A DNA stretch of 64,000 bases. It comes from Parcubacteria group bacterium Gr01-1014_31 (GTDB lineage Bacteria > Patescibacteriota > Patescibacteriia > Buchananbacterales > GWA2-38-13). The stretch lies in contig VMFR01000001.1 of assembly GCA_007376135.1 (NCBI GenBank), positions 452,360-516,359 of the forward strand. Reading direction: 5' to 3'. The position numbers and the translations under genes were made by a program. The notes under the pieces were generated by a model that made no database searches, was not told where the DNA came from, and saw nothing but the letters and a program-made list of their open reading frames with translations. Position 1 is the first letter of the stretch; each line of letters opens with the position of its first letter. This document shows positions 5,742 through 61,537 of this stretch, piece after piece.

Positions 5742-5744
5742 AAG

Positions 5745-6220: not shown

Positions 6221-6225
6221 GCCTT

Positions 6226-12375: not shown

Positions 12376-12393
12376 GATCCGTCAACCGAGTTA

Positions 12394-12918: not shown

Positions 12919-12973
12919 AATAAATTAATTAAAAAAATTAAGATACAAAGGTCAATAAAGATTCTATTGTATG

Positions 12974-13288: not shown

Positions 13289-13321
13289 AGATACTGAGAG
13301 TTAACGGCCGCAGATACTTTA

Positions 13322-13660: not shown

Positions 13661-13678
13661 ATGCCCCGCAACGCGGCC

Positions 13679-15505
13679 TCATTTCTTGGCCTTTTTCGCG
13701 GTAATTTCCGGGTCCAGCCGCAGCTTCAGCTCTTTCAACTGCTTGGGGTCCACCTCGGACGGCGCATTCATCATCGCATCCTCGGCGCGGCCGTTCTTGG
13801 GGAATGCGGTCACCTCGCGGATGTTGTGCTCCTCGCGCAGTATCATCACCATTCGCTCGATGCCGGGGGCAAAGCCGCAGTGCGGCGGCGCGCCATAACG
13901 GAATGCCGCGATCATATGGCCGAATTTCTTGTCCACGGCCTCTTGTCCGTAACCAGCAATTCGGAACGCCTCGTACATGATCTCGGGCACGTTGTTGCGC
14001 ACGGCGCCCGAGGACAATTCAATACCGTTGCAGACGATGTCGTACTGATAGGCCAGGACCTCCTGAGGATCCTTGTTCTTCAGCGCATGCATGCCGCCCT
14101 GGGGCATGGAGAACGGGTTGTGGCAAAAATCTATCTTTTTTTCCTGTTCGTTGTACTCGTACATCGGGAAATCCACGATCCAGCAGAAGGCGAGCTTCCC
14201 CTGGTCGACCAGTTCCAATCGCTTACCAAGGGTCAAGCGCGTAGCGCCCAGCGACGCAGCGACAATTTTTGGCGTATCGGCGCCGAAAAACAGGACGTCG
14301 CCGGGCTTTCCGCCCAATTGCGTAATGATCGTTGCCGCCAGTGCATCGCCCAAGAACTTCACGATAGGCGACTGCAGCGTGCCATCCGCTTTCACGATGA
14401 TGTAGGCCAGCCCCTTGGCGCCGAGTTTCTTTACCTCCTCGGTCATCTTTTCGATCTCCGTGCGCGAGAGTTTCGCCGCCCCCGGGGCGCACAGTGCCCG
14501 CACCACGCCGCGGTTCTTCACGGCATTGGAAAACACCGAAAACCCGCAATTCTTCACGAGCGCGGTGATATCCTCAATCTCCATCCCGAACCGTAGGTCG
14601 GGCTTGTCGGTGCCGTACTTCAGCAGCGCGTCCGCGAAGGTCAAGCGCGGCAAACGGCCGTTGACCAACGGCACGGTTTTGTTCGTGAACTCCTTGGCCA
14701 AGTCCAAAAACAGCGGCTCCATCAGGTTGAAAAACTCGTCCTGCTCCAGGAAGCTGGTCTCCACGTCCAGCTGGTAGAACTCGCCGGGACTGCGGTCGGC
14801 TCGTGCGTCCTCGTCGCGCATGCATGGCGCGATCTGGAAATATTTATCAATACCGCCGACCATCAAAAGCTGCTTGTATTGCTGGGGCGCCTGCGGCAGC
14901 GCGTAGAACTTGCCGGGATGCAGCCGAGACGGCACCAGAAAATCGCGCGCCCCCTCCGGCGAGGACGCCGTCAAGAGCGGCGTTTCCACTTCCAGGAAAC
15001 CGCGGCTGTGCATCCAGTCGCGCAGGAATTTGATGACCCGGGCGCGGAATTCCAGATTTTCCAGCATCCGATGCCGCCGCAAATCCAGGAAGCGGTACTT
15101 CAACCGCAGGTCTTCGTTGACGTCCTGCGTACTGGCCGCCCCCTCGCCTTCCGGCATCCACGTCAGCGAAAATGGCGGCGTTTTCGCGGGGTTGAGGATC
15201 TCAATGCCCGTAGCAAAAATCTCCACCTCTCCCGTGGAAAGCTTGGGGTTGATCATTTCCGCCGGCCTGCGCTCCACCGTGCCGGTCACCTTGATGACGT
15301 ATTCGTCGCGCACCTTGTCTGCGACTGCCCAAGCGTCCTTGGCTCGCGTCGGGTTGAAGGTTACCTGGGTCAGGCCGTACCGGTCGCGCAGGTCGATAAA
15401 AATCACTCCGCCGTGGTCGCGGCGGCTGTTCACCCATCCGGAAAGCGTTATCGTTGTGCCCGCAGCAGAAGCGCGCAGCTCCCCGCAGGTGTGCGTGCGA
15501 AACAT
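13679..15505 (-). CDS. aspS: aspartate--tRNA ligase
   Basis: Class II aaRS motifs and an N-terminal OB fold (…GWVNSRRDHGGVIFIDLRDRYG…). The C-terminus has the GGIDRMVM-like GIERMVMIL. Confidence 0.9.
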   Translation of the reverse strand: MFRTHTCGELRASAAGTTITLSGWVNSRRDHGGVIFIDLRDRYGLTQVTFNPTRAKDAWAVADKVRDEYVIKVTGTVERRPAEMINPKLSTGEVEIFATGIEILNPAKTPPFSLTWMPEGEGAASTQDVNEDLRLKYRFLDLRRHRMLENLEFRARVIKFLRDWMHSRGFLEVETPLLTASSPEGARDFLVPSRLHPGKFYALPQAPQQYKQLLMVGGIDKYFQIAPCMRDEDARADRSPGEFYQLDVETSFLEQDEFFNLMEPLFLDLAKEFTNKTVPLVNGRLPRLTFADALLKYGTDKPDLRFGMEIEDITALVKNCGFSVFSNAVKNRGVVRALCAPGAAKLSRTEIEKMTEEVKKLGAKGLAYIIVKADGTLQSPIVKFLGDALAATIITQLGGKPGDVLFFGADTPKIVAASLGATRLTLGKRLELVDQGKLAFCWIVDFPMYEYNEQEKKIDFCHNPFSMPQGGMHALKNKDPQEVLAYQYDIVCNGIELSSGAVRNNVPEIMYEAFRIAGYGQEAVDKKFGHMIAAFRYGAPPHCGFAPGIERMVMILREEHNIREVTAFPKNGRAEDAMMNAPSEVDPKQLKELKLRLDPEITAKKAKK

Positions 15506-43407: not shown

Positions 43408-43478
43408 TCGGGGTGCGGGGAGTCGAACCCCGTCTCCATGCACCCCATGCACGTGTACTGCCGGTATACTACACCCCG
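43408..43478 (-). tRNA. tRNA-Pro (anticodon GGG)
   Basis: Acceptor CGGGGTG/CACCCCG, D-arm GTAT-ACCGGCA-GTAC, anticodon stem CGTGC/GCATG with loop ATGGGGT (G37), T-arm CGGGG-TTCGACT-CCCCG, discriminator A. Confidence 0.8.
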
Positions 43479-43648: not shown

Positions 43649-44272
43649 TCACCCGAGCAGCGCCGCCCGCAACGGTGCCCCATCCAACCCCATAAACTTC
43701 AACGGCAGCCCGATGAACACGTAACGCCCGGGCCGAACTTTTGACAAGTCCAATCCCTCCACGATGGGAATGCCGCGTGAAAGCAGGGCCGTATGCGGCC
43801 GGTTGTCAGGACTGCCGCGCTGCTTGACCGAGAGCGAATCAATGCCGACCAGACTGACGCGCCGCTGCGCGAGCCAAGCAGCCGCCTCCCCAGTAAGCCA
43901 GACATAATCGTCCCACCAGCGGGAAAACCCACGACGCGAATTGCGCGTTTTCAAAAGAACGCGCTCCCCCGCCCGGATACGGTATCCGGCAAGGTCGGTG
44001 GTCGTAATGGCGCCAGCCAAACGAGTCAAATCCAGCACGCGGCACGGCCCGTAGAATGCTTGCAGCGGTAAGCGGTCCACGCCGCCGCCATCCCGGAACG
44101 CATGACGCGGCGCGTCCACGTGCGTGCCCGTGTGCGATCCAAGTACTACCTCCGAATGCCAAGAGGTTTTGCCGCGCAGCGTGCGAATTTTCACGCGCGG
44201 GTTGCCGGGGTACACCACGGTCTTGCCGTGCAGCGGGAGTGAAATATCAACTAGGCGTAATCGTCGAGCCAT
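43649..44272 (-). CDS. cyclase family protein (kynurenine formamidase-like fold)
   Basis: HTGTHVDAPRH motif. Start trimmed to MARRLRLVDISL. Confidence 0.6.
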   Translation of the reverse strand: MARRLRLVDISLPLHGKTVVYPGNPRVKIRTLRGKTSWHSEVVLGSHTGTHVDAPRHAFRDGGGVDRLPLQAFYGPCRVLDLTRLAGAITTTDLAGYRIRAGERVLLKTRNSRRGFSRWWDDYVWLTGEAAAWLAQRRVSLVGIDSLSVKQRGSPDNRPHTALLSRGIPIVEGLDLSKVRPGRYVFIGLPLKFMGLDGAPLRAALLG

Positions 44273-44274
44273 AG

Positions 44275-45219
44275 CTAGAGGGTCGTAATTGGTCGCGACT
44301 GGACAATGAAAAATTTCTTCTTCGCGAACGCCCACTCGATATCCTGCGGCTTACTGTAATGACGCTCAATGTCAGTGCAGAGCTTCGCCAGTTCAACGAT
44401 CTGGCGGCCGGTCAATTTTTGCACCTCTCGTTTCTCTGCGGACACGGACCGCCACACGTTGCCGCCGCTAGATTTTCGTACCAGCATTTTTTCCTGCGCG
44501 GCAATGTTGATGTCGACCAGATGGAGGTCGCGCTTATCGATGACGTAGCTGTCGGGCGTGATCTGGCCGGAAACGATAGCTTCGCCCAGGCCGAACCCGG
44601 CCTCAATGATCATCTGGTTATAGTCCTTGGTCACCGGATGCACGGTGAAGGCGATGCCAGCAACCTCGGCCTGGATCATCTGCTGCACCACCACCGCGAC
44701 CGACACTTTTGACCGTCTCATTCCTTTCTCGTTGCGGTAAACAATGGCCCGCGGCGTGAACAGTGACGACCAGCACTTCTTGACATTGCCGAGCAAAATC
44801 TTTGCCGTTGTGTTCAGATAGCTCTCTAATTCTCCCGCCCAAGAGGCAACCGAGGAATCTTCGGCGGTTGCCGAGCTTCGGACCGCGACCAGCGGGCTCT
44901 TGAGCTGGCGGAAGCGGCCCAGCACGGCCGCACTGAGATCCTTAGGAAACGCTGCGTCGTGGATAAGGTCGCGGATGATTACTGACGCCCGCTCAACGGA
45001 ATGGACGTCGCGATAGTTGACCTTAGCCAACGCGGCCCTAATCTCTTGGACCAAGTCAGCGCCCTTCAAAAACTGTTCAAACGCGGCTGCCGTGACCACA
45101 AAACCTGGCGGCACCGGAATGCCCGCGCGCGTCATTTCCCCCAACGATGCCCCCTTGCCGCCGGCCAGATGCGCGTCGGTCTTTTTTAACTGTTCAAAAT
45201 CTAGGAGATAATCCACCAT
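44275..45219 (-). CDS. stand-alone PPDK_N-type ATP-grasp nucleotide-binding domain protein (PEP synthase / rifampin phosphotransferase N-terminal domain homolog)
   Basis: GGKGASLGEM, VPPGFVVT, VRSSATAEDS…SWAG, VAVVVQQMIQ, GFGLGEAIVSG, and QDIEWA. 314 aa, ending where a fused dikinase would continue. Confidence 0.75.
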   Translation of the reverse strand: MVDYLLDFEQLKKTDAHLAGGKGASLGEMTRAGIPVPPGFVVTAAAFEQFLKGADLVQEIRAALAKVNYRDVHSVERASVIIRDLIHDAAFPKDLSAAVLGRFRQLKSPLVAVRSSATAEDSSVASWAGELESYLNTTAKILLGNVKKCWSSLFTPRAIVYRNEKGMRRSKVSVAVVVQQMIQAEVAGIAFTVHPVTKDYNQMIIEAGFGLGEAIVSGQITPDSYVIDKRDLHLVDINIAAQEKMLVRKSSGGNVWRSVSAEKREVQKLTGRQIVELAKLCTDIERHYSKPQDIEWAFAKKKFFIVQSRPITTL

Positions 45220-45228
45220 ACCGTCAGC

Positions 45229-46710
45229 CTATCGTTTTTTCACCAATTTGACCACGCCGCGATTTGCATCCACCTCAACCTCATCGCCATCCTGGAACAC
45301 CCTCGTCGCAATCTTGGTACCGATGATGCAGGGTTTGCCGAGCTCTCGCGCGATAATCGCAGCGTGGCTGGTTACACCGCCGACTTCAGCAATAATCGCT
45401 GAAGCCAATTTCATCGCCGTGACAAGTCGGGGGTTTGTCGTATGGGCGACGAGCACATCACCTTTCTCCATTTTTGTAATATCTTGCACTGTATCCACAA
45501 TTTTTACTAGCCCCCTTGCTTTTCCCGGCGAACCCGTAGCACCTTTCAATTCTTTTATATTCCTCTCAATAACTGAAGTTTGGGCAAGCAGCCAATCAAA
45601 CAAATGTTGGGCGATCTGGCCTTGATATTCATCAATTATTCCATCATGAAAATAGAGGGCAAACATTTTCTTTCTTTGGCTGAGCAAGTTGGCGTTCACT
45701 GACGCGCCTTTTAAGGTCTTGATCATTTCAAGCGGCTTGAGAAATTGCACTTGTGTAAGCGACAGAAAATGTTCTCGGGCAATTTTACAAAGGAGCGGCT
45801 CCAAAGACCAATACAACAACCAAGAGGCATCAACGCGTAAGGCTTTCATGGTAGCGATCTCTTCAAGCAATTTCGCGATTCTCGTGGCTTCCTTTGATAA
45901 TTTATATTTTTTTACCATCTCTTTTTTCCGGCGGCGGATTTCCTGTCGATATTTCGTTTCAGGTTTTATATATTTTTTGGAATTTTTTTCTTTTCTGATG
46001 AGCTTCACTCGCTCTTCAAAATAGCCAACATCATACGCCGGCCCTTGCCAATTGTATCCCAACCATGCGTATTTCTGCCAGTGTTGCTTTATTTTCTTCC
46101 CTGGCGGCCTCCCTTCGATTAAACCCAAAAGGTCTTGCTCTTCTTTCTGCAAAAAACTGTATTGCTCGGGAGTGGTGATAACGGTAAATATTTCTCCAAG
46201 AGATGACCGAGACACGCTGTTTCCTTCCAAAATTTTCTTTAATTTATCTCCGAGCAACGAACGACCCATTTCCAACAAGTTAATTGCTTGTCCCCGAAAC
46301 CACAGATGATCGTGAATTTCATACAATTTGAAGTACATTTTAGCAAGCTTTCCATTTGCAATCTTATTAACATCAAGGCGTTGTAGGCGGCGGGATTCAA
46401 CCATGAGTTTTTGGCTTAAACTCCTGATCTCATCTAAAATGTTTTTTATAAAACCGGGTTTTTTTATATCCTGTGCAAGTATTTTTTTGCCAGCAATCTC
46501 CAATTCATCATCGAGATGGTACATGAAAATATCATTATTTTTAAAAACCCAAATCCCACGAAATATGCCGGTTTTGTACATTTTATTGAGCATGTACGCA
46601 TAGGCGATTAAGGCTGACTGGACTATCCAGAGCGGGCAATTCGGAATTTTCTCAAAAAGATCCCAGCGGTAAGATTGTATTTGTTTTTTTATATCCTTTA
46701 TCGTGTTCAT
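45229..46710 (-). CDS. PEP-utilising-enzyme mobile (phospho-His swivel) domain protein, paralog 1; AT-rich gene
   Basis: C-terminus GDVLVAHTTNPRLVTAMKLASAIIAEVGGVTSHAAIIARELGKPCIIGTKIA (phospho-histidine domain). The N-terminal 380 aa are uncharacterised and Lys-rich. About 38% GC against about 68% for neighbours. Confidence 0.6.
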   Translation of the reverse strand: MNTIKDIKKQIQSYRWDLFEKIPNCPLWIVQSALIAYAYMLNKMYKTGIFRGIWVFKNNDIFMYHLDDELEIAGKKILAQDIKKPGFIKNILDEIRSLSQKLMVESRRLQRLDVNKIANGKLAKMYFKLYEIHDHLWFRGQAINLLEMGRSLLGDKLKKILEGNSVSRSSLGEIFTVITTPEQYSFLQKEEQDLLGLIEGRPPGKKIKQHWQKYAWLGYNWQGPAYDVGYFEERVKLIRKEKNSKKYIKPETKYRQEIRRRKKEMVKKYKLSKEATRIAKLLEEIATMKALRVDASWLLYWSLEPLLCKIAREHFLSLTQVQFLKPLEMIKTLKGASVNANLLSQRKKMFALYFHDGIIDEYQGQIAQHLFDWLLAQTSVIERNIKELKGATGSPGKARGLVKIVDTVQDITKMEKGDVLVAHTTNPRLVTAMKLASAIIAEVGGVTSHAAIIARELGKPCIIGTKIATRVFQDGDEVEVDANRGVVKLVKKR

Positions 46711-48239
46711 GGTAGCAATGTTACAACTCCTCTGTTTGCATCTACCTCGACCTCATCGCCGTCCTTAAACACCTTCGTGGCGATCTTCGTGCCGATCACG
46801 CATGGGATATTCAACTCGCGGCTGACAATCGCCGCGTGTGAGGTAACGCCACCTTGCTCGGTGACGATCGCAGCGGCCTTTTTCATCGCCGACACAATGT
46901 CTGGGTCAGTGGCAATAGACACGAGGATATCACCCTGCTTCATCTTGGCCATATCCGAAGCGCGAATGATAATCTTGACCGTCCCCCGCGCATGGCCCAG
47001 ACAGGCTGGCTGGCCCCTGATCTCACGCACGTCAGTATCAACTATCCGTTCCACTGTCGAGAGATATTCCCTCGCGGTATCGCCGATCATGAGCTTATCG
47101 CACCCGCGTTCAGCGTAGTAAACCATGAGCTTCGTCCGCTCCTCCAGGACAGCGGGGTGGCAGATGCGCCGCAGCAGCATGGCCTTCATTTCTTCCGGCA
47201 AGACGCAGCGCACCTGCGCCTCGCTGATGCCGCGGCGGCGGGCGATCTCGCGGAGGATCGCCCCCATGTGATGCACGGCGAGCAGTTGCGCGTAACGCCG
47301 ATAAATTTTTGTCACCATGAAGTCGCCAAAAGACCCAAAGACCGCCGCCCATTGGCCATTGATCTTGAGCCGACGAAATAATTGCCGGCGTCGGCTCCGC
47401 GCCCTTACAAGCTCGCGGGTTTGGAGCCGCAGCTGTTCCTGCGGCGATTGGTCCTTGTCAAAAATCTCTTTGAGTTGGCGGAGGTAGTCCGCGATCGTGT
47501 ACTCCCCGCTCACCCAGAGGTGCTTCGTGTAGTAGTACTTGCGGCGGTGCGTCTCTAGCGACCGACGAATAGCGGGGGGAAACTTCGCCATTACAACTTG
47601 AGTATCCTTGTGTTTCAACGCCGCTTGCGCCGACTGATCACCCACAATCTTAGCCGCAATCTTAAGAAGCTGCTCATGCTCGATGTAGATGAGCGACTTC
47701 TTGGTCGGTTGTGTCAGAATGAGAAATGACTCAGTGATTCGCTCGTCGCTCACCCCTTTAGCCCGTAGGTACTCCTTCACCTTATCCGTGAGGTTGTTAT
47801 GGAACATGTCCGCGCCCACGGGAATCCAGCACCAAGTGTAATACGTCGAGTGAATTTCATTATGGCGCCGGTAGACGGCCCACAGCTGACGATCGGTTAG
47901 GCGATCGAGATTACGCTGCGGAATTTTATCGCAAAAGCGTCGCAGCTTGTCCGCCTCAACGATGATGTGACGGTTCACCCGAGCCGCATAACCAGGCTCG
48001 CCGACAATGCGCCGAGCGATATTTTCTCCCACGGCAAATGAATCCTGCTGGCCGAAATAAAACCACAAATGGTAGCCAACGTACTTGCTGACGATTTTAG
48101 CGTACGCCCGACCGGTGTGCTTGGCAAAGTCGTTGACGAACCCGTGCAGCCAAACGTTAGAGAAGAACAGATCGGCGTTGGGGATGTCTTCGCCCAGCAT
48201 CCAGGGATCTTTGTCGTGGTAGTGTTGAAGTGACTTCAT
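46707..48239 (-). CDS. PEP-utilising-enzyme mobile domain protein, paralog 2
   Basis: C-terminus GDILVSIATDPDIVSAMKKAAAIVTEQGGVTSHAAIVSRELNIPCVIGTKIA. 4-bp overlaps with both neighbours. Confidence 0.6.
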   Translation of the reverse strand: MKSLQHYHDKDPWMLGEDIPNADLFFSNVWLHGFVNDFAKHTGRAYAKIVSKYVGYHLWFYFGQQDSFAVGENIARRIVGEPGYAARVNRHIIVEADKLRRFCDKIPQRNLDRLTDRQLWAVYRRHNEIHSTYYTWCWIPVGADMFHNNLTDKVKEYLRAKGVSDERITESFLILTQPTKKSLIYIEHEQLLKIAAKIVGDQSAQAALKHKDTQVVMAKFPPAIRRSLETHRRKYYYTKHLWVSGEYTIADYLRQLKEIFDKDQSPQEQLRLQTRELVRARSRRRQLFRRLKINGQWAAVFGSFGDFMVTKIYRRYAQLLAVHHMGAILREIARRRGISEAQVRCVLPEEMKAMLLRRICHPAVLEERTKLMVYYAERGCDKLMIGDTAREYLSTVERIVDTDVREIRGQPACLGHARGTVKIIIRASDMAKMKQGDILVSIATDPDIVSAMKKAAAIVTEQGGVTSHAAIVSRELNIPCVIGTKIATKVFKDGDEVEVDANRGVVTLLP

Positions 48240-49753
48240 ACTTTCCTCACCACTCCCCTCTCCGCATCCACCTCGACCCGGTCTCCATCACGAAATACTG
48301 ACGTTGCGATTTTCGTACCCACAACACATGGGATCAGGAGCTCGCGCGAAACAATCGCCGCATGGCAGGTCAAGCCGCCTTCATCGGTCACGATCGCCGA
48401 CGCCTGGCGAATTGCCGGCATCAGATTCGGGCTGGTCGCCCGTGATACGAGAATATCCCCACGTTTCATTTTTCCCATCTCCGATGGCGCAGAGATGAGC
48501 TTGACCGTACCACGGACCTTACCGGTGCAGGCGGTAGTTCCATGAATTTCATTGACTTCTACGACAGCATTTTTCTCGGCATTCGCCTGCAGAAAATCCG
48601 CCGCCGGCTTTCCCACCAATAACCACTGCCGCTTGCCCTGCCGTCCATAGACAACACAACGGAGACGATTTCGAATCTCTGACCGATCAACGCCTCCATA
48701 CCGTAGTAGAATTTCTACCTCCGAAGGCAGCAGCATACGTATCTCTGGTATGGTCAACCCCGCACGACGAGCCATCTCGGCAAGTAACGGTTCCAACAGA
48801 TAATACGACCATGTTTGCAATTCCCGGCGGTAGGGTTTAAAAAATACGCTCGCCCGAGCAAGCTCAAGGATGGCCCGTTCATTACGGTCGAGCTGCAGCT
48901 TCTTCACGACTGCATGTTGCCGCAGCGCCAATGTCTTTCGTTCCTGTTCGTATTGGCGGAGCTGCGCCTCCGGCGAGATACCCTGATCGACCAAATCTTT
49001 CAAGGCGGATACGAAATACGCCGGACCCGCCGCCGGACCTTGATAGACATAATTCACCCAGGCAAACGTTTGTGCATGTGATCGGATCTTCCGCCAAACC
49101 GTCGGATAGTTGCCGGAAATGATAGTGACCAAACGATCCGGAGGCAAAGTTTTAAACTGTTGGACCAGTCGCGACTGCCGGCGAATCGTGGCAAGAATGT
49201 GTAATAATGCAATTTCGGCGCGTTTGTTGTAGGTGGCTCGCCGCGGCGTCGTGAGCAGGGTGGTGTGCGCAGCGGCATTATGCCCCTGCAGAATGCGGTT
49301 GATCTCATCGGTTATAAAAGTCGTGGTCTGGAAATCAAGGAGTGGAATCACGGCGCTCAAACCGTACAATGTTGTGTTCATCACAACGTACCGCTGGTAG
49401 CACCGATTGAGCTGCGCAGCCGTGAGCGTCCGCAAAAATGACGGAGATAATGTTTTCGCGTACGCGATCAACTTTTTCCCCCGCTCTTCACAGGTTCGGA
49501 AGTTTTGCGCCAGAAAGCGCGGGTATAGCTGGATCTTCGCCACCAGCCGCCGGTGCGCGATCTCCCAATTTTTTGGCTGACAAAACCACGTCAAATCTTC
49601 ACCGTGAATCGCAACGGCAATGGACACCGGATGTTGTAGAATGCCGAGCTTCGATAACCTCGCCCACCCGTCCGGCAGCATGAAGGCCGGAAAGAGCGAG
49701 GCGACGTACTCTTTGGCAATGATGGACCAAGCCGCTTGCTTTGCCATACTCAT
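48236..49753 (-). CDS. PEP-utilising-enzyme mobile domain protein, paralog 3
   Basis: C-terminus GDILVSRATSPNLMPAIRQASAIVTDEGGLTCHAAIVSRELLIPCVVGTKIA. Shares the LEPLLAEMARR motif with paralog 1. Confidence 0.6.
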   Translation of the reverse strand: MSMAKQAAWSIIAKEYVASLFPAFMLPDGWARLSKLGILQHPVSIAVAIHGEDLTWFCQPKNWEIAHRRLVAKIQLYPRFLAQNFRTCEERGKKLIAYAKTLSPSFLRTLTAAQLNRCYQRYVVMNTTLYGLSAVIPLLDFQTTTFITDEINRILQGHNAAAHTTLLTTPRRATYNKRAEIALLHILATIRRQSRLVQQFKTLPPDRLVTIISGNYPTVWRKIRSHAQTFAWVNYVYQGPAAGPAYFVSALKDLVDQGISPEAQLRQYEQERKTLALRQHAVVKKLQLDRNERAILELARASVFFKPYRRELQTWSYYLLEPLLAEMARRAGLTIPEIRMLLPSEVEILLRYGGVDRSEIRNRLRCVVYGRQGKRQWLLVGKPAADFLQANAEKNAVVEVNEIHGTTACTGKVRGTVKLISAPSEMGKMKRGDILVSRATSPNLMPAIRQASAIVTDEGGLTCHAAIVSRELLIPCVVGTKIATSVFRDGDRVEVDAERGVVRKV

Positions 49754-51120
49754 CTACGAGACAATCTCCGCACAGTCCCCTTCTCAGCGTCCACTTCCAC
49801 ACGGTCGCCGTCTTTGAGTGCTTGGGTGGCGATCTTGGTACCCATCACGCACGGAATTTTATATTCCCGCGCCACGATCGCGGCGTGCGCGGTAATACCG
49901 CCTTCGTCCGTCACGATGGCCTTCACTCTTTTCAAAAAAGGTACAATCTCGGGCGTGGTCATTCCCGTCACAATGATATCGCCGCGCCGGATGCGGTCGT
50001 AGGAGTACGGATTGACCTTGCGGACGCGACCGCGAACGTTGCCAGGGTAGGCCGCCAAGCCACGTAAGAATTTCTCCTTCTGCCCCCCACCCTCGTTCGC
50101 CATAGCCCGAAACCAACGACCGGTGAAGAGATACCCCTGGCCACCCAGCACGACGTAGCCCATACCACGCTGACGCTGACGAATGACGGCACGCGAAATG
50201 CGCTGCTGCAATATCTCGTCGGCGGTCAGCTGGATGATCTCGTTGAAAGTCAAACCATACCGCCGCGCCAGCTCGCTCATGAACGGCTGCTGGGCATAAA
50301 AAAATTTCGTCACGGCCAGCAGGCGCGTATCGCGAAATGCTACCAAGCGCTGCGCAACGTAAAATAATTTCCGATGACGCCGCAACGACGCTGGCAGGAT
50401 TTTATGGCGAGACGGGGTTGATGTACGCGCCTCGCGCATTTCGCGCCGTAATACCGCCGGAGTGTAGTGCCGAATATGAAAAAGATAGGAATTCGACCAG
50501 CCGTAACGTTCAATAAAATCGGCAGCAACCTTGGCCGGCAGGCGTGTGCCATACCGGCGGCGCAACGTCACCAATGCCTGCTGTTTCCGTTGCAGTTCCG
50601 TCAACCCATGAGGTGCCGAATAGCGTACAATGGCGTCAGCGTCCACACCTCGAGCCGTCAACCGGTCTTTCACGACCTGGTCGGCAAACATCGGAAAATA
50701 GGCCGACGCCCATACCCGGTCGCAATGCTCGACAAATTTCAAAAAATGGCGCTGCAACTCCTGTAGGGTCCAGGTGCGAAACGGCACATGGCGCTGACCC
50801 TCGCCCCAGCGTATGGCCCGATCGAGGATCCGCTGGAGGACGTCGACGCGCTGGATGACGAGGTCCGGACGACGCGTGAGCCAGCCGCGGATGGTCCGGT
50901 GGACCGCGGCCAGTTCGCGCCGATGGAAAAAGGACGCCTCGCCGTAGCGTTTCCAGTATTGAAGATTCGGTAAACCTAAAATCGGCCGCAGCTGCGACCG
51001 ATTGCATCGTCGGATGGTATCTACAACGAGAACGGGATGGCCTCCGCGGGCGACGAAACGCTCCCAAGGAATTTGCCGCTGTTGCCGCAACGCGCTTGCC
51101 AAGGACAGCCGTTTCGCCAT
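49750..51120 (-). CDS. PEP-utilising-enzyme mobile domain protein, paralog 4
   Basis: C-terminus GDIIVTGMTTPEIVPFLKRVKAIVTDEGGITAHAAIVAREYKIPCVMGTKIA. Confidence 0.6.
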   Translation of the reverse strand: MAKRLSLASALRQQRQIPWERFVARGGHPVLVVDTIRRCNRSQLRPILGLPNLQYWKRYGEASFFHRRELAAVHRTIRGWLTRRPDLVIQRVDVLQRILDRAIRWGEGQRHVPFRTWTLQELQRHFLKFVEHCDRVWASAYFPMFADQVVKDRLTARGVDADAIVRYSAPHGLTELQRKQQALVTLRRRYGTRLPAKVAADFIERYGWSNSYLFHIRHYTPAVLRREMREARTSTPSRHKILPASLRRHRKLFYVAQRLVAFRDTRLLAVTKFFYAQQPFMSELARRYGLTFNEIIQLTADEILQQRISRAVIRQRQRGMGYVVLGGQGYLFTGRWFRAMANEGGGQKEKFLRGLAAYPGNVRGRVRKVNPYSYDRIRRGDIIVTGMTTPEIVPFLKRVKAIVTDEGGITAHAAIVAREYKIPCVMGTKIATQALKDGDRVEVDAEKGTVRRLSRR

Positions 51121-51133: not shown

Positions 51134-52444
51134 TCACCGCCCCAAAATCCGACGCGTTTCTACTTTGTAGGCCTCGACGTTCGGCTGGTCAAAGGCGTTC
51201 ACGTTCATCAGCTTGCCCAGGTACATCATCTCCATCATTTTGAATTGCATAAATTCGCCCAGGCTGCGTTCCGACACGTCATCAAGTATCACCTCCATGA
51301 ACGGCAGGCCGCGCTTGCCGTAGGCGATCTTTACGCCGGACAGTATCGCGTCCATGACGCCCACAGCAGTTTTCCCCGCGATGCCGGAGACCAAGCCCGC
51401 CAACGCCAGTTTGGACGGGATTTTCACGCTTGCGCTTTTCGCGGTGGTAACGAACGTCGTTACCACCGCCTTGGGCCCGCCTAGATACAGCTGCCCGACC
51501 GAATGCAGGTCCGTGGAACCGACCGACACGGTCGGGAACATCCCGGCGTTGACGGTCTTTCCGCCAACATCCTGCTCTTTGCCGATGCTTTCGCCCATCA
51601 GCTGCCGGTACCACTTCCCCAGCGACTCCAGTTCCGGATGGAACACGAACGTGTCGTGGATGAGAAATCCGCGCTGCCGCTGCTGATATAAAATACAAGC
51701 CGAAAGCATTGCCGGGTTGTCTTCCAAACGTTGGGCCAGGCAACGCTCAAGCATTGCCGCTGCACCCCCGCGCAGTGCCTTGATATTGTATCCAGCCGCG
51801 GCCAGCGGGAAGAGGCCGACTGCCGACAGCACCGAGTAGCGTCCGCCCACGGACTTGGGAATGGGCAGGCGTCGTAGCCCGAGCGTCACGGCCAGCTGCC
51901 AAAGTTTCGAGCCCTCGTCGGTGGTCACCACCAGGCGGTGGGCGGCGTCCGGAAAGCGACGGGAAAGGTGGCGGTACAAAATTTCAAAGTTGGCGACCGG
52001 TTCCGTGTTGCTCCCGGATTTGCTGATGATGTTGACCACGACCTCACTCGACCGCTTGACCTCGGTTTCCATTAGGCGGCCCAACCGCTGCAGCCACTCC
52101 GGGTCAACGGTATCGGCGAACAACAGCTTGGGAAAACGGCGCGGTTCCAGGACATCAAATCCTCCGGAGATCGCGTCGTAGATGGCCTTGGTACCTAGAT
52201 TGGAACCGCCGATGCCAACGACCACCAGGTACTTGAGCGATTTGGTTGCCGTCGCCTTCACCGCCGCCGTAACATTATTGGACAGCACGGCATCCGACGC
52301 CAAACACAACGAGCTTTCCGCCGCTTCATAGCCGCCGCGGGTCGTGGCTGTGCGCAGTTGCTGCCGGTACGCGACCAGCTCCTGCCCGCACTGCTGCAGT
52401 TCGATCGGCGTCAAACGGCAGGTCTCTCGATAGCGCAGTTCCAT
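51134..52444 (-). CDS. pgi: glucose-6-phosphate isomerase
   Basis: SIS-domain motifs (…VVVGIGGSNLGTKAI…) and a catalytic Glu/His region. 436 aa. Confidence 0.8.
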   Translation of the reverse strand: MELRYRETCRLTPIELQQCGQELVAYRQQLRTATTRGGYEAAESSLCLASDAVLSNNVTAAVKATATKSLKYLVVVGIGGSNLGTKAIYDAISGGFDVLEPRRFPKLLFADTVDPEWLQRLGRLMETEVKRSSEVVVNIISKSGSNTEPVANFEILYRHLSRRFPDAAHRLVVTTDEGSKLWQLAVTLGLRRLPIPKSVGGRYSVLSAVGLFPLAAAGYNIKALRGGAAAMLERCLAQRLEDNPAMLSACILYQQRQRGFLIHDTFVFHPELESLGKWYRQLMGESIGKEQDVGGKTVNAGMFPTVSVGSTDLHSVGQLYLGGPKAVVTTFVTTAKSASVKIPSKLALAGLVSGIAGKTAVGVMDAILSGVKIAYGKRGLPFMEVILDDVSERSLGEFMQFKMMEMMYLGKLMNVNAFDQPNVEAYKVETRRILGR

Positions 52445-52457: not shown

Positions 52458-54287
52458 CTACAATATTTTTTTCACCATCTCGACGATGGCCGGCGCCGAG
52501 ATCTCTTCGTAGTCCAGCAATTCTTGCGGGGTGCCGGACTTCGGCTGCTTGCGAACTGCCAGACTGTACACGCGCACCGGAATTTCAGCCACGGCTTCCC
52601 GCACCGCGTCGCCGATCCCGCCCTCCGCCACATGGTCTTCCACCGTGATGATGGCTTTCGTATCGTGCGCGGCGCGCTGCAAGGTCGCGCGGTCCACCGG
52701 TTTGACGCTGTAACAGTCAATAACTCGCGCGTCAATCCCCTGTTCCTTGAGCTGGTCGGCGGCTTTGAGCGCCTCAAATACCGTGACCCCTGCACCGACG
52801 ATGGCAACCTGGTCGGCCGCGGTTGCCCGCAGCACCTTGCTGCCGCCGATAGCAAGCTTCTCGCCGGGACTATACAGCAGGGGCGTTGCCATGCGCGTGG
52901 TGCGCACGTACACGATCCCGCGATGTTTGACCGCCTCCTCCACCAGGGCTTCGGTACTATACGCATCGCACGGGTACAGCACGACGCTGTTGAGGACCGT
53001 CCGAAACATCGCCAGATCCTCCAACCCCATCTGCGACGGCCCGTCCTGCCCGATGGACACGCCAGCGTGCGAACCGCAAAACTTGATGTTGCCGCCGGAA
53101 TACTGGCTCATGCGGATCTGGTCAAACGCGCGGGTGAAGAATGCCGCGAAAGTGGAGACGAACGGGATCTTGCCGCGTCGCGCCATCCCCAAAGCCGCGC
53201 CGACCATGTTCTGCTCGGCAATGTACATTTCCACGTAGCGTTCCGGATACACCTGCCGCATCTTCTCAGCAAAGGTGGAATTGGAGGTCTCGCCGTCCAT
53301 GGCGACCAGCGACGGGAACAGCGGCGCCAATCGGACGAGCGCATGCCCGTACGCTTCGCGGGTGGCCACCGGCTTTCCCGCCGGATAGGACGGGGCCTTG
53401 CTCACGCCAACCACGAATGACCGCGGCCGCTGCTCTTCCGGCAGGGCGATTTGCCCCCGCACCGACGCATCCACCGGCCCCAGCTCGGCCAGCGCCCCTT
53501 TCAGTTCGTCCTGGCTCAAGGCCTTACCGTGCCAACCCGGTTTATTCTCCAGCAGCGAGACGCCCCTCCCCTTCATCGTCTTGGCAACGACCATCACGGG
53601 CTTGCCTTTGACGCGCGCAGCGGCGCGGTAGGCGGCAATGACCTTGGGCAAGCTGTGGCCATTCACGACGATGCACTTCCACCCGAAAGACTCGACGCGC
53701 TTGGCGTACGCCTTCACATCGTGGCCGTACATCGTCGGACCGGTCTGGCCCAAGCGGTTGACGTCCAGGATGCCGACCAAATTGTCCAATTGGTAGTGGG
53801 CAGCCAGCTGGATCGCTTCCCAGATCGAACCCTCGGCCATCTCGCTGTCGCCCAGCAGGACGTACGTGCGATAGGGCAGCTGGTCGAAGTACTTGGCGTT
53901 GTAGGCCATGCCGACGCCGATGGACAGCCCTTGGCCCAGCGACCCGGTGGCCGCCTCCGCGAACGGGAACGCCGGGACCGGATGGCCTTCGAGCACGCTC
54001 CCGAATTTCCGCAACGTTACCAGCTCATTTTCGCTGACGCGGCCCGCGGCCGCCCAGAGCGCGTACAGCAGCGGCGAAGCGTGACCTTTGGAAAAAATGA
54101 GCCGGTCGTTGTTGGGCCGAGCGGGGTGGTCGGCGTCAAAACGGAACACGCCGGAAAACAGCAGCCCGACGGTGAGCTCCACCGCCGACAGCGACGAGCT
54201 CGGATGCCCCGACCCGGCCGCGGTCGTCGATTTCAAAATGTAATACCGGACCAATTGGGTGAGTTGCCGTAAAGAGTCTTTCGCCAT
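52458..54287 (-). CDS. tkt: transketolase
   Basis: TPP-binding GSGHPSSS…, GDSEMAEGS, a pyrimidine domain and a C-terminal domain. 609 aa. Confidence 0.9.
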   Translation of the reverse strand: MAKDSLRQLTQLVRYYILKSTTAAGSGHPSSSLSAVELTVGLLFSGVFRFDADHPARPNNDRLIFSKGHASPLLYALWAAAGRVSENELVTLRKFGSVLEGHPVPAFPFAEAATGSLGQGLSIGVGMAYNAKYFDQLPYRTYVLLGDSEMAEGSIWEAIQLAAHYQLDNLVGILDVNRLGQTGPTMYGHDVKAYAKRVESFGWKCIVVNGHSLPKVIAAYRAAARVKGKPVMVVAKTMKGRGVSLLENKPGWHGKALSQDELKGALAELGPVDASVRGQIALPEEQRPRSFVVGVSKAPSYPAGKPVATREAYGHALVRLAPLFPSLVAMDGETSNSTFAEKMRQVYPERYVEMYIAEQNMVGAALGMARRGKIPFVSTFAAFFTRAFDQIRMSQYSGGNIKFCGSHAGVSIGQDGPSQMGLEDLAMFRTVLNSVVLYPCDAYSTEALVEEAVKHRGIVYVRTTRMATPLLYSPGEKLAIGGSKVLRATAADQVAIVGAGVTVFEALKAADQLKEQGIDARVIDCYSVKPVDRATLQRAAHDTKAIITVEDHVAEGGIGDAVREAVAEIPVRVYSLAVRKQPKSGTPQELLDYEEISAPAIVEMVKKIL

Positions 54288-54296: not shown

Positions 54297-54650
54297 CTAC
54301 AGGCTTATGAACAGTGCGGAGACCAGGTTCACAATGCCGCCGACCAGCAGGCCCGTGCCGATCCCCAGGTGTTTTTTTTGGACTTTCAATACGGCCAGCA
54401 AGACCGCCCCGCCGACCACCAGCACGAACGGCGAGACCAGATAAAAGAAGAACGCGTAGTAGGCGGCGCCGATCTCGGCGTCCGGCTGCCGCATTCCCAG
54501 GTAGCCGACGATAGAGGAAACCACGCCGGGCATCAGACCGAGGATGAACGGCAAACTCTTGGCGAACCGCCCCGGCAGCATGGGCATCGGCGGTATAGGT
54601 ACGGGTACGTTTTCCATAGGCAAAAAAATTTCTGTTATTCTACTTAACAT
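54297..54650 (-). CDS. hypothetical small membrane protein
   Basis: Three hydrophobic helices. No motif recognised. Confidence 0.3.
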   Translation of the reverse strand: MLSRITEIFLPMENVPVPIPPMPMLPGRFAKSLPFILGLMPGVVSSIVGYLGMRQPDAEIGAAYYAFFFYLVSPFVLVVGGAVLLAVLKVQKKHLGIGTGLLVGGIVNLVSALFISL

Positions 54651-55244: not shown

Positions 55245-57653
<2,409 letters not shown>

Positions 57654-57841: not shown

Positions 57842-58819
57842 TCAGGCGGAACGAATCTGGCCCTGGTAGCGCTGATATGCTTGTTTTTTGAGCAGAAGTC
57901 GTCGCGCCCTTGTTGGGCTATACGCACCTCTTTTTTTTAGTAAATTTATTACGCTATCTCTCCTTGAACGGCTTTTACTCCCCATCGCCAATTTATTTCT
58001 CCCTAATTTCAAGCCGAGATGCTCGGCCCCGCTAGCGTAGGTGCGTATTTTCGTTTTTGCAGGGTTTACTGGAAGTCTCTGATTATTATCAAAATCAGAA
58101 AGGATTTTTTCCACTATTTTTACGACTGCCGAAATTTTTTCCTGGCTCACTCTGCTTGCGCTGATACCTATGTCGTCTATAAAAATCGCCACTCGAGGAT
58201 CATATTTTTTAAGGAGCTTTTTTACTTCCCGATCAAGGTGAATAAAGGTATCTAAATTACACCACACGGCTAATCGAGTAGAGGTTGCGAAACCTCGAGC
58301 AAGAGTTTTTTCTGTAGACATAGAACCCTTTTGGCCAACGGGAACGCAACATAGACTGGCCAATAGCCGTGATGCTCGGGGGCTACAGCCGCATTTTCTA
58401 TAGAAGAAAAAAAATACTCTCTGTTCACGAATCTGTTCAAAAAAATGCGTGATGTCGAGACTAGCTAAAATCCTCCCTCTCTCTTGCCCCAGTAGACTAC
58501 GGGCTGCTTGTATATGACTTCTGCCTGTCATGCCGCCAAAAATATAATTGGGTACGAGACGATCATGAGGTGCAAGAACCTTCTTATCAATCCGTTCGAG
58601 AAGCACGCCCAATGGAGTGCGGGCCGCACTACGCACAAACTTTCCTCTGTTAGGTTGAGAATTCTCGCTATTATCGCGCCAGTAATAATCAAAGTTACGA
58701 ATCACATCATTAATGAGTGTCAGTGCCTGCGGATAAGGTAAGGCGCTATCGCTAATCGTTTTTGCCAACTCATTCTTGCTACCAATCCTCAATCGCGGGT
58801 ATCGCGGACGGCTAAACAT
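57842..58819 (-). CDS. reverse transcriptase (retron/defence-associated RT-like, 325 aa), AT-rich
   Basis: RT motifs: IFGGMTGRSHIQAARSLL (2a), LDITHFFEQI (3), CVPVGQKGSMS (4, LPQGxxxSP-like), RVAIFIDDIGIS (5, xxDD), and NPAKTKI (6). No maturase or endonuclease domain. Confidence 0.7.
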   Translation of the reverse strand: MFSRPRYPRLRIGSKNELAKTISDSALPYPQALTLINDVIRNFDYYWRDNSENSQPNRGKFVRSAARTPLGVLLERIDKKVLAPHDRLVPNYIFGGMTGRSHIQAARSLLGQERGRILASLDITHFFEQIREQRVFFFFYRKCGCSPRASRLLASLCCVPVGQKGSMSTEKTLARGFATSTRLAVWCNLDTFIHLDREVKKLLKKYDPRVAIFIDDIGISASRVSQEKISAVVKIVEKILSDFDNNQRLPVNPAKTKIRTYASGAEHLGLKLGRNKLAMGSKSRSRRDSVINLLKKRGAYSPTRARRLLLKKQAYQRYQGQIRSA

Positions 58820-59135
58820 AGCGCTTTAAATATTTTGCCCTCACATCGATCAGATACAGCTGTAGTTGACTACCAACGTCAATCAGCGATTTTTCTAGCT
58901 GGGATAATTTTTTTGTGGATGAGGGACTATCGAGCAACAAGAACGGCGTAATCGAACTGGGTTGTACACCCAATTTGTCAGCAAGTTTGATGATAAAATT
59001 TTTGGATACCTCTTTTTGACCCGATTCGATCATCGCAACAAGGACAGTTGATACACCTAAAACATTGGCAAATTCACTCTGCGTTAAATCACTTTCATCC
59101 CGAATTTTTTTTATCAACTCCGGTAGAGTATACAT
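58812..59135 (-). CDS. XRE-family helix-turn-helix protein
   Basis: LTQSEFANVLGVSTVLVAMIESGQK is the Cro/C1-type HTH. Overlaps the RT start by 8 nt. Confidence 0.7.
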   Translation of the reverse strand: MYTLPELIKKIRDESDLTQSEFANVLGVSTVLVAMIESGQKEVSKNFIIKLADKLGVQPSSITPFLLLDSPSSTKKLSQLEKSLIDVGSQLQLYLIDVRAKYLKRYV

Positions 59136-59149
59136 AATGTAAATATGAC

Positions 59150-59600
59150 TAAGGGGTGGCTACATGAACCGCATGATGTCCATCACGATGCGAATGATCC
59201 AGATAATGATCCGAATGATTCGCAGAATGTAGACCAGCATACGTGCTAGCCACCCCTACACACGGAACGCCCAGACTAGAGTTTAGATTGGAGAAATGAG
59301 TTGCATTCATAGATAAGGGGTTTATTAATTAACCGACCTTTACCCAGGTGACTGATTACTCCAAAGCTTATGGCCATTTATTCCGAAATGCGGCGTTCCG
59401 GCGGAACTCACGGCCATAAGCTGTGAGCAATCATTAGACATCGACCTAATATCTTACAAGCACTTCCCTGCCCCTCGTCCTCCCCATCATCTCCTACACA
59501 TCTACTGGTTGTTTTTTTGAGGCAGATACTTTCGCTTGAGACAGCACCCGGGATTCCCCGGGGCAATAATTCATCCCCCCTACGGCACTAGCAGGAGAGA
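59150..59600 (-). ncRNA. candidate structured non-coding RNA region upstream of the HTH-RT operon (retron msr/msd-like or RT-associated ncRNA)
   Basis: 11-bp inverted repeat AGGGGTGGCTA…TAGCCACCCCT (59151-61 and 59247-57) brackets GGATCATT repeats. Further hairpins: GCTTATGGCC…GGCCATAAGC with an inner GTTCC-GGC-GGAAC; CCCGGG-attc-CCCGGG; AGACAC-ttaac-GTGTCT. No ORF of at least 60 aa with a plausible start. Confidence 0.35.
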
Positions 59601-59782
59601 GATCCAGACACTTAACGTGTCTAAAATCATCGGATTCAACGGCCATCACTCTACTCCGTTTTCAATGTACCGTGATTGAATCATATACTTTTCGTATATG
59701 AATGTCAACTGACTTATCCACAGAGCAAAACACGAGCTAGGGTGCCGCGAAGAGTAAAAATATTGACTTTGGTAAGAACATT

Positions 59783-61537
59783 TTACCTCACCCGCCAGGT
59801 AGAAAACCCACCAAAGGAAAGCTCGGGTACTTGCCGGAAGTACGGTTCAGCGATCAACCGCTTCGGCCAGCGGATGACCTCTTCGCGGCCGCCGTTCGGA
59901 TAGTCGTCGAGCCACAGGTACAGGAGGTAGTCGTCCCCGTCGCCGTACAGGATGAGTTGTTCGATGGGATCAAATACGTTCTTGCGGTGGAACCACTCGG
60001 AAAATTGCGCCGGGGTTTTCGCCAGCGCGAGTATGCGCAGATAGCGGAGGCGCTCGGAGAATCGGGCGGCCGGATGCGAGTAGTGCTGATTGTAGGAAAT
60101 GAACTGTGGCAGCGCAACCTGCGCCTGGAGCGGCGGGAAGAAACTCAAGGCCGTCCTCTTGGCGTCCTCCGGATGCGTGCGGAAATAGTCAGCAAAACGG
60201 GCGGCGGTAACGCTCCCCTGCCGCACTGCTGCTAAGCGCACGGCGGTGGACTCCTGGTCCAGCCACAGGCCGAACGGCAGCGATACGGCAATCGCGATCC
60301 AGGCGAGCAAAAATTTCGTCGCCCCCGTCTGCGGAACGGCGGCCGAAAATCGTTCCCGCAAGACCGCGGCAACGCGGGTGAAACCCTGGGCGGGTGCGCT
60401 TCCCGCGATCCAGACGGTCAGTCCATAGGCGGCGCCGTACGCCAGAATAATCTCCCCGAAAAACGTAAAGCCGCGCGCGCCCTGGAACGGCGCGTCGCCA
60501 AACATCGTCGCTACCAGCGTAACGGCCTGCCAGACGTAACACCCCAACAGCAGCTGCAGCGCGGGACGGATCAGCGGCCGCCGGCGATACGCGACCAACG
60601 CGACCAGCCCGACCCAGAGCCAGGCGCTGCGGGGCGTGAACTCCACGGGCGGAAAAAAATTGAGATCCGAGGCGATAAAGAACGCCGGCTGCCAATTCTC
60701 CATCCCATGCCGGACGTAGCTTGCCGCCAACGGCCACCAGTACCAGAGGGACCCCAAGGCGACAACACCCCCGATCGCTCCCCAGGAAACAAGCTCGCGC
60801 GCCAGCGACCGCGGATTCCGCCAGGGCAAGAACGTCAGCACCGCGATGCCGACCATCACAAACCACAGGTAGTACGTCGTGAACAACGCCGCCCCCAGTA
60901 CCCCGATGGCTAGCATGTGCAGCAACTGCCGCTCGCTGCCCGCCAAAAAACGCCGCACCACGGTGAACCACAAGAGAACCCCCAAAGCGGAGGCAAACTC
61001 ATACGGTTTGGCCAGCACCGACGGAAAATCCACGGCCAGGAACGGGGTGAGCGTCAACAGCAGCGGAAAGAGCGGATTGGCGATGGGCCCGTCCGAGTCA
61101 CGCCGGACCGTGCGCCAAAACCACCAGGAAAGCAGCGGAATGACGAGGGACGCAATGACCCCGGCAAGCTTGGCCGCCCCAACCCCCGTCAGACCAAACA
61201 TTCGGGCGATGCCGCCGATCGAATAAAACCACAGCGGCGGATAAAACGCCGGCAATTTGGCATACGTAAGATCATGCCCGATGCCGTCGGTAATGACCCG
61301 CTGGTAGAACGCCGTGGTCAACGCTTCGTCCCCCTGCAAGCCGCCGAACGGCAGAGGGGTTTGCCAGAGTATGACCACCTGCAGGGTAACGATGGCAGCG
61401 ATCACCGCACCCGCCGCCAGCAGGCATCGCCGCGCGATCTTGCGATTCGTCCATAGGCCCACCCCAAGCACAGCAAACAACAGCATCTTGCCGAACGCGA
61501 GGATATGAATCGTGGACGGCTGGAACGGTGGCAGCAT
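59783..61537 (-). CDS. polytopic membrane protein, GT-C-fold glycosyl/arabinofuranosyltransferase-like
   Basis: About 12 TM helices then a soluble C-terminal domain. Weak resemblance to AftA/GT39-type transferases. Its 3' end is duplicated downstream of the RT cassette. Confidence 0.4.
   Translation of the reverse strand: MLPPFQPSTIHILAFGKMLLFAVLGVGLWTNRKIARRCLLAAGAVIAAIVTLQVVILWQTPLPFGGLQGDEALTTAFYQRVITDGIGHDLTYAKLPAFYPPLWFYSIGGIARMFGLTGVGAAKLAGVIASLVIPLLSWWFWRTVRRDSDGPIANPLFPLLLTLTPFLAVDFPSVLAKPYEFASALGVLLWFTVVRRFLAGSERQLLHMLAIGVLGAALFTTYYLWFVMVGIAVLTFLPWRNPRSLARELVSWGAIGGVVALGSLWYWWPLAASYVRHGMENWQPAFFIASDLNFFPPVEFTPRSAWLWVGLVALVAYRRRPLIRPALQLLLGCYVWQAVTLVATMFGDAPFQGARGFTFFGEIILAYGAAYGLTVWIAGSAPAQGFTRVAAVLRERFSAAVPQTGATKFLLAWIAIAVSLPFGLWLDQESTAVRLAAVRQGSVTAARFADYFRTHPEDAKRTALSFFPPLQAQVALPQFISYNQHYSHPAARFSERLRYLRILALAKTPAQFSEWFHRKNVFDPIEQLILYGDGDDYLLYLWLDDYPNGGREEVIRWPKRLIAEPYFRQVPELSFGGFSTWRVR

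Follow-up and report, generated by a model that had tools for sequence, protein, structure and literature searches.

A gene array with one stand-alone ATP-grasp subunit and four acceptor paralogs in a Parcubacteria group bacterium probably encodes a one-to-many two-component dikinase

Introduction

Two-component dikinases resembling rifampin phosphotransferase (RPH) have been described in Proteobacteria and Actinobacteria, where HpeHI, CreHI and the phenylphosphate synthase PpsAB occur as 1:1 pairs in aromatic-catabolism clusters and both components are required (PMC12167813). One component, exemplified by the crystallised HpeI (PDB 9GOJ), is a stand-alone ATP-grasp protein, while the other, exemplified by HpeH, pairs an RPH-like substrate domain with a swivel domain, whose conserved His is indispensable (PMC12167813). 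Here, a gene array of Parcubacteria group bacterium Gr01-1014_31, a CPR (candidate phyla radiation) bacterium, is described in which a single ATP-grasp gene, designated G, stands in tandem with four paralogous acceptor genes, designated A to D. All coordinates are those of the window, the stretch of 64,000 nucleotides that was analysed.

The array shares two features with HpeHI, CreHI and PpsAB: the ATP-grasp domain resides on a protein of its own (~35-40 kDa), and the second type of protein combines a predicted RPH-type substrate domain with a C-terminal swivel domain that carries the His. The same logical order of ATP-grasp domain, helical substrate domain and C-terminal swivel domain is found in RPH-Lm (PDB 5FBS, 5FBT, 5FBU, 5HV1). 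However, the ratio of ATP-grasp to acceptor genes is 1:4 in this array and up to 1:10 in its relatives, as opposed to 1:1 in the known pairs. The array probably encodes a one-to-many, two-component, ATP-dependent small-molecule dikinase system.

Results

Domain content of G and of the acceptor paralogs

The array comprises five open reading frames (ORFs) on the minus strand: A (456 amino acids, aa; 49750..51120), B (505 aa; 48236..49753), C (510 aa; 46707..48239), D (493 aa; 45229..46710) and G (314 aa; 44275..45219). An earlier note on this DNA had listed the same five ORFs and had read G as an ATP-grasp domain only, with intact nucleotide-binding motifs, which agrees with Pfam and with alignments to RPH and phosphoenolpyruvate (PEP) synthase (PEPS). 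It had also placed the ATP-grasp gene first and the paralogs after it; this was mistaken, as the order of transcription is A-B-C-D-G with G at the end.

The sole Pfam domain of G is PPDK_N (PF01326; E 5e-97; profile positions 3-311 of 328). Over its entire length, G could be aligned with the ATP-grasp domains of PEPS (E 1e-68) and RPH-Lm (E 3e-62). Its residues K22, R114 (in AVRSSATAED) and S133 match Lys22, Arg117 and Thr136 of RPH, which position ATP according to RPH mutagenesis, and its QDIEW and VQSRPIT motifs are aligned with catalytic residues of RPH and PEPS. Scores of G were 235 bits with the PEPS ATP-grasp domain, 214-216 bits with RPH and 191 bits with HpeI (9GOJ). Among NCBIfam models, PRK06464 gave 334 bits and the RPH equivalog NF041857 gave 303 bits (cut-off 999). 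As the best 120 database matches of G were all PPDK_N-only proteins of 311-367 aa (65-77% identity, across CPR phyla), G is not a gene fragment.

In A-D, PEP-utilizers (PF00391) is the sole Pfam domain and covers the last ~70 residues (E 1e-24 to 1e-26), namely residues 378-448 of A, 430-500 of B and 415-485 of D, and the extreme C-terminus of C. Pfam gave no match in the N-terminal ~350-400 aa of A-D. The swivel motif with its His is present in all four paralogs: GGITAHAAI in A (His412), GGLTCHAAI in B (His464) and GGVTSHAAI in C (His468) and D (His449). The common form GGxT[SCA]HAAI is of the PEPS type, including the Thr, and the swivel domain of PEPS 8A8E was matched by the A1 profile with 142 bits. 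Pfam and motif inspection thus bear out the four tandem paralogs with divergent N-terminal domain (N-domain) and C-terminal swivel that the earlier note had proposed. Identity between paralogs is 44-65% in the swivel domains but only 14-22% in the N-domains. Conserved swivel domains together with a conserved G (65-77%) and divergent N-domains therefore fit a set of many acceptors with one docking partner.

Predicted fold of the N-domains

AlphaFold2 models were obtained for C, the most conserved paralog, and for A, the most divergent one. The model of C (62 homologs) reached a predicted local distance difference test score (pLDDT) of 93.0 and a predicted TM score (pTM) of 0.89, that of A (31 homologs) 91.3 and 0.88, respectively. 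In Foldseek searches of the PDB, the best matches of both models were to RPH-Lm over ~540-590 columns with TM scores of 0.5-0.6 (E 2e-13 for C; E 6e-13 for A, with 5fbu as best match), and RPH was the only structure which matched C and A over both substrate and swivel domains. When aligned to the C-type N-domain with hhalign, B and D were clearly related (probability 99.3%, E 3e-20 and probability 99.4%, E 5e-22, respectively). The corresponding alignment of A was weak (E 1.5e-3), and its fold is nonetheless the same by model. Because of the fold matches of C and A and the profile alignments of B and D, the N-domains of all four paralogs are predicted to be RPH-type substrate domains. A search of the PDB with the C-type N-domain profile, based on sequence only, yielded no match; the relation to RPH was visible only via a four-paralog profile that includes the swivel domain, or by fold. 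Pfam, fold and hhalign results bear out a split RPH-type dikinase with the ATP-grasp domain on one chain and substrate and swivel domains on another, as had been suggested.

The possibility that the N-domains are PEP/pyruvate-binding TIM barrels was excluded by Pfam and by the two helical, RPH-like models. Pfam did not detect the TIM-barrel domain PF02896 in the dikinase proteins, and no such domain was present anywhere in the related loci described below.

One ATP-grasp gene and many acceptor genes in related loci

A scan with the C-type N-domain, covering one genome per GTDB species, returned 80 loci, on which self-built hidden Markov models for the swivel and ATP-grasp domains were run for gene counts. 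By record title these loci belong to CPR bacteria or DPANN archaea, with the exception of ~20 entitled 'uncultured Gammaproteobacteria', two entitled 'uncultured Methanosarcinales' and several entitled 'bacterium' or 'archaeon', all of which were taken as doubtful or uninformative labels. Many of the 'uncultured Gammaproteobacteria ... binchicken' records (L008, L010-L012, L020, L024 and others) carry CPR-typical loci, and their labels look unreliable. Orthologs of C with 35-60% identity occur throughout the CPR (Magasanik-, Falkow-, Komeili-, Kerfeld-, Veblen-, Nealson- and Saccharibacteria) and in DPANN archaea (Nano- and Woesearchaeota).

The count for 82 non-redundant loci was 300 acceptor genes, compared with 40 ATP-grasp genes of the stand-alone kind, the latter never exceeding one per locus. 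Among the 34 loci that measure 20 kb or more, the median number of acceptor genes is 5 and the highest is 10, and 21 of these loci have an ATP-grasp gene within 10 kb. Three loci which were reached independently, via G homologs alone, carry 5-6 acceptor genes beside one G each. Four-bp overlaps were found at 42 of 218 same-strand junctions in related loci. As far as sampled, the one-to-many layout is confined to CPR bacteria and DPANN archaea.

When 307 N-domains were clustered, a single C-type cluster with 85 members was obtained, one per locus in 85 of 86 loci, of which the related ones had been retrieved with C itself. The other 222 N-domains were distributed over about 80-120 small clusters. 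Judged from these clusters, C is a conserved single-copy core module and the other paralogs a hypervariable accessory set. Orthologs of B (38-41% N-domain identity) are present in several CPR loci from several phyla. D had one distant relative among the examined loci and A was almost an orphan there; homologs of A with 40-50% identity are rare. A search of 1.84 billion representatives with a profile built from the N-domains of all four paralogs returned at least 4,230 clusters (50% identity level), most of them with 480-520 aa.

The composition of D (GC 42%; GC at third codon positions 46%) deviates from that of its neighbours (60-81% at third positions) and of the genome (60% GC). Moreover, the closest relative, locus L007, has no D-like gene between C and the ATP-grasp gene. 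For these two reasons D was probably acquired recently, by horizontal transfer, which suggests that single modules can be gained into an existing array.

In some loci, ORFs other than acceptor and ATP-grasp genes stand out. In L088 (5070-8758), the acceptor array is separated from the ATP-grasp gene by five consecutive ORFs of 198-277 aa without Pfam match, and L089 and L090 have similar unannotated ORFs of 225-301 aa; the system could include these as additional components. A gene for a TrwB/VirD4-like type IV coupling ATPase is located directly upstream of the array in six loci (L001:6313-8484, L005:6461-8419, L006:7501-9516 and three more). It is limited to Magasanikbacteria-type loci and may reflect lineage synteny rather than a functional link.

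Natural fusions of ATP-grasp and acceptor modules

In several proteins the modules are fused. One of them, P0361 (L087:2012-8941), is an uninterrupted ORF of 2309 aa in which Lys/Glu-rich linkers connect three substrate-swivel modules, then a PPDK_N domain and lastly a fourth module. Its host is probably a DPANN archaeon, given the neighbouring Translin and TGT genes on a contig of 113 kb with 34% GC. In P0443, PPDK_N precedes two modules; P0410 and P0476 each represent a 1:1 fusion similar to RPH, and P0362 and P0367 contain three fused modules each. Such fusions link the ATP-grasp domain in function with more than one acceptor module at a time. Together with the comparative gene counts they support one ATP-grasp partner shared by several acceptors, as the earlier note had proposed; that charging proceeds in trans is likely by analogy with HpeHI.

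Operon structure

The array forms part of a longer run of minus-strand genes, transcribed in the order 117-aa ORF, tkt, pgi, A, B, C, D, G, cyclase-family gene and tRNA. A hydrophobic ORF of 117 aa (54297..54650), probably the first gene of the operon, ends 9 nt before the transketolase gene tkt (52458..54287; Pfam Transketolase_N, Transket_pyr and Transketolase_C); a comparable ORF of 106 aa occupies the same position in the relative L091. The tkt gene lies 13 nt upstream of the glucose-6-phosphate isomerase gene pgi (51134..52444; PF00342), which in turn lies 13 nt upstream of A. G is followed by a gene for a cyclase/arylformamidase-like protein (43649..44272; PF04199, E 3e-25; below the cut-off of the NCBIfam arylformamidase model), whose likeliest start is the ATG at 44272, 2 nt past the stop codon of G. 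A tRNA gene (43408-43478) is located further downstream.

Of the junctions within the array, A/B, B/C and C/D are ATGA overlaps of 4 bp, as the earlier note had claimed for all of them; at D/G there is no overlap, and TAG plus 9 nt separate the two genes, which are in the same frame. The TAG of D and the start of G (45219-45231, minus strand) are three codons apart, so that read-through would yield a D-G fusion. The swivel-then-grasp order of this in-frame pair is also seen in the natural fusion P0361.

Two minus-strand promoter-like sites (54713-54684 and 54664-54637), each matching 9 of 12 consensus positions, were found solely upstream of the 117-aa ORF and represent a candidate operon promoter by consensus match. 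No convincing terminator was detected between this candidate promoter and 43649. Because of the short junctions, the position of the promoter-like sites and the absence of a convincing internal terminator, the region from 54650 to 43649 looks like one operon. The inclusion of pgi and the cyclase-family gene, which had been predicted, is in accord with these distances, and the cyclase-family gene is probably co-transcribed with the dikinase genes. As cyclase genes do not recur in related loci, where the family was outside the top 25 in the censuses of both in-array and nearest flanking ORFs, it is not treated as a component of the system.

Gene neighbourhood

Just upstream of the operon, an 802-aa fusion of glucose-6-phosphate dehydrogenase (G6PD) and 6-phosphogluconate dehydrogenase (6PGD) is encoded (55245-57653, minus strand). 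L091, a close relative which has kept the order tkt-pgi-A-B, encodes a fusion of 810 aa. NUDIX and RibD genes lie 10-12 kb from the array in the window. A Nanoarchaeota locus, L003, shows a similar setting. One side of its C-type gene is occupied by a transketolase-like gene (555 aa; Pfam Transketolase_C and a faint Transketolase_N) and a Glucosamine_iso-family gene, read as 6-phosphogluconolactonase; on the other side are G6PD, purine-synthesis and NUDIX genes.

The 130 in-array ORFs of related loci include 19 haloacid dehalogenase-type (HAD) hydrolases, 12 members of the histidine-phosphatase superfamily (His_Phos_1) and 4-5 orotate, adenine or hypoxanthine phosphoribosyltransferases. According to NCBIfam, the HAD proteins are of type HAD-IA and resemble glucose-1-phosphatase, pyrimidine 5'-nucleotidase or phosphoglycolate phosphatase. 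The commonest family among the nearest flanking ORFs (n=112) is NAD(P)HX dehydratase (8), and NUDIX, HIT, HD, nicotinate phosphoribosyltransferase (NAPRTase) and acylphosphatase genes are also found near the arrays. By neighbourhood, this context points to hydroxyl-bearing central or salvage metabolites such as sugars, nucleosides and cofactor precursors, over antibiotics. A role in anti-phage defence was rejected because PADLOC models matched none of the six proteins searched.

Three features of the window lie apart from the operon. Between the G6PD-6PGD gene and a gene for an AftA_N-like glycosyltransferase is a reverse transcriptase gene (RVT_1, 325 aa; 57842-58819, minus strand), in a patch of 45% GC at 58000-60000. 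It looks like an insertion, as the syntenic stretch of L091 is devoid of it; in its vicinity, neither a group II intron nor a retron RNA was revealed by Rfam. A second patch of low GC is located at 12001-14000 (51% compared with about 62% on either side), and a cluster of four tRNA genes at 5238-6298 (minus strand).

Discussion

In the mechanism proposed for the one-to-many dikinase, G would bind ATP and the C-terminal swivel domain of any of A-D would dock on G in trans. The swivel His would take the beta-phosphate of ATP with release of AMP and Pi. The phospho-His swivel would then return to its own RPH-type N-domain, where a hydroxyl group on the small molecule bound by that paralog would receive the phosphate. 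G would be the common charging module and A-D four substrate-specific modules, presumably with four distinct substrates. Dikinase chemistry and stoichiometry would be as in RPH and HpeHI, by homology to these enzymes.

In favour of this mechanism, the position that is aligned, at low confidence, with the catalytic Arg666 of RPH holds a basic residue in each of A-D, and an Arg common to all of them stands three residues later (K311 and R314 in TKIYRRYAQ of C). Several points weigh against it: (i) in 13 of the 34 loci of at least 20 kb, no ATP-grasp gene was found within 10 kb, and acceptors in these loci may use another donor or a gene elsewhere in the genome; (ii) the alignment of A-D with the catalytic region of RPH (Arg666-Glu667-x-x-Lys670) is of low confidence, and Glu667, the partner of Arg666, is not conserved in A-D; (iii) each phosphorylation by a dikinase consumes two phosphoanhydride bonds, a high price for an organism that lives by fermentation.

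It is possible, though somewhat doubtful, that the arrays encode modular metabolite, water dikinases, with a single ATP-grasp subunit driving an exchangeable set of substrate modules, which would replace the hexokinase, phosphofructokinase (PFK) and ribokinase-type enzymes missing from nearly all CPR genomes. The arrays would then supply the sugar and nucleoside kinases that ultra-small prokaryotes seem to lack. The modules would act on scavenged hexoses, pentoses, nucleosides or vitamin precursors; the universally conserved C-type module would perform the core reaction, and modules like D would be gained horizontally. This proposal is mildly favoured by the context, with pgi, transketolase and G6PD-6PGD genes beside the array, HAD and histidine phosphatases within related arrays, and phosphoribosyltransferase, NAPRTase and NUDIX genes nearby. 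Hexokinase or glucokinase and PFK are missing from nearly all CPR lineages, with the reservation that novel divergent enzymes are not excludable (Jaffe et al. 2020, PMC7304191).

It is improbable that the paralogs form a battery for inactivation of antibiotics or other xenobiotics, each phosphorylating a different toxic compound from the host or the community and diversified in an arms race. Such a function would be compatible with the RPH-type fold, the hypervariable accessory paralogs, the apparent horizontal acquisition of D and the rph-like matches listed in a CPR resistome survey (PMC8651080). However, C looks like a housekeeping rather than a resistance gene, since it occurs once per locus in 85 of 86 loci and is 35-60% identical from CPR to DPANN. 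Further, A-D reached only 59-74 bits with the NCBIfam RPH equivalog NF041857 (cut-off 999) and were without match to the PADLOC models, the phosphatases encoded in the arrays would undo an inactivation, and the neighbours are pentose-phosphate and nucleotide-salvage genes instead of efflux or resistance genes. Antibiotic inactivation, considered in the earlier note, thus received no specific support and is opposed by some of the evidence.

Very unlikely is a function as ATP-independent phosphotransferases which shuttle phosphate between phospho-metabolites via the swivel His, or a PPDK-like reverse reaction, as in anaerobes, in which the acceptors together with G would synthesise ATP from AMP and a high-energy phospho-donor. 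In favour of this, HpeH alone can move phosphate from 4-phosphoacetophenone to acetovanillone (PMC12167813), more than a third of the large loci are those without a nearby ATP-grasp gene, acylphosphatase and phosphatase genes are found close to the arrays, and the swivel motif is that of PEPS and of pyruvate, phosphate dikinase (PPDK). On the other hand, G is strongly conserved, tightly linked to the arrays and fused to acceptor modules in nature, and the PEP/pyruvate TIM barrel is missing from the loci. It is also established thermodynamics that ordinary phosphate esters cannot drive the conversion of AMP to ATP.

That the genes are fragments of frameshifted PEPS or RPH genes, or non-functional duplicates, is hardly credible: D and G are indeed in frame with only TAG and three codons between them, and this domain order is also known from fused proteins in other loci, but none of the five ORFs is truncated and their motifs are intact, stand-alone homologs of G, found in well over a hundred clusters, are the rule, over 80 independent CPR/DPANN loci show the same split and the two structural models are confident. 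A frameshifted or fragmented PEPS gene is effectively refuted. The doubts which the earlier note had attached to its own proposal were checked as well, and G is no frameshift fragment, the His is present in all four paralogs and the N-domains are not TIM barrels.

The one-to-many dikinase, if correct, would be of interest for the biology of its hosts. In CPR bacteria and in DPANN archaea, genomes measure about 1 Mb, yet many loci hold 5-10 paralogs and occupy up to ~15 kb of DNA. So large a family in such reduced organisms is probably central to their scavenging lifestyle. The genes are concrete candidates for phosphorylation of sugars or salvage metabolites in CPR bacteria that have neither hexokinase nor PFK. 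Their present database label is 'pyruvate, water dikinase', 'PEP-utilizing enzyme' or 'hypothetical'; of these, 'pyruvate, water dikinase' is wrong and can mislead metabolic reconstructions.

Compared with the closest described systems, the array differs in several respects. The His subunits of HpeHI, CreHI and PpsAB have ~600-650 aa, whereas the acceptors described here have 456-510 aa, and the host range (CPR bacteria and DPANN archaea) and the context of pentose-phosphate, salvage and phosphatase genes are different. Judged by bit scores, G resembles HpeI less than it does the ATP-grasp domains of PEPS and RPH. With NCBIfam PRK08296, which comprises hypothetical proteins of ~600 aa with a C-terminal swivel domain and was used as a possible stand-in for PpsA/HpeH, only the last ~105-130 residues of A-D align (58-103 bits; cut-offs 578-730). 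RPH is a single chain of 867 aa with one substrate domain, in contrast to the separate genes found here; substrate-domain identity is only ~14%, and the swivel motif of RPH is GGLMTHGAV instead of GGxT[SCA]HAAI. PEPS has the sequences closest to both the ATP-grasp and the swivel domains and shares the GGxTxHAAI motif. However, unlike in PEPS and PPDK, the PF02896 TIM barrel is absent, the swivel domain is C-terminal and not central, and the domains are located on separate chains; cut-offs of NCBIfam models for full-length PEPS were not reached. For these reasons, database names such as 'pyruvate, water dikinase' are misleading.

Since two-component RPH-like dikinases have already been described, the finding is not categorically new. 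The view in the earlier note that no such system had been described does not hold for the split, which is known from PpsAB, CreHI and HpeHI; only for the 1:4 multiplication with a single G did the literature searched yield no description. Arrays of this kind were not found described in the literature searched, in which PPDK_N, PEP-utilizers or swiveling domain were combined with CPR, Patescibacteria or DPANN, and a transposon sequencing paper on Patescibacteria does not mention the genes. The one-to-many layout thus appears to be undescribed. One charging subunit for many exchangeable substrate modules would, if true, be a new organisational principle for dikinases, resembling enzyme I of the phosphotransferase system, which feeds many sugar-specific branches. 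What is new in comparison with the known split and single-chain enzymes is that a single ATP-grasp subunit is combined with acceptor and substrate modules which form a multiplied, modular set, probably exchanged in part by horizontal transfer, and that the ATP-grasp and swivel sequences are of the PEPS type.

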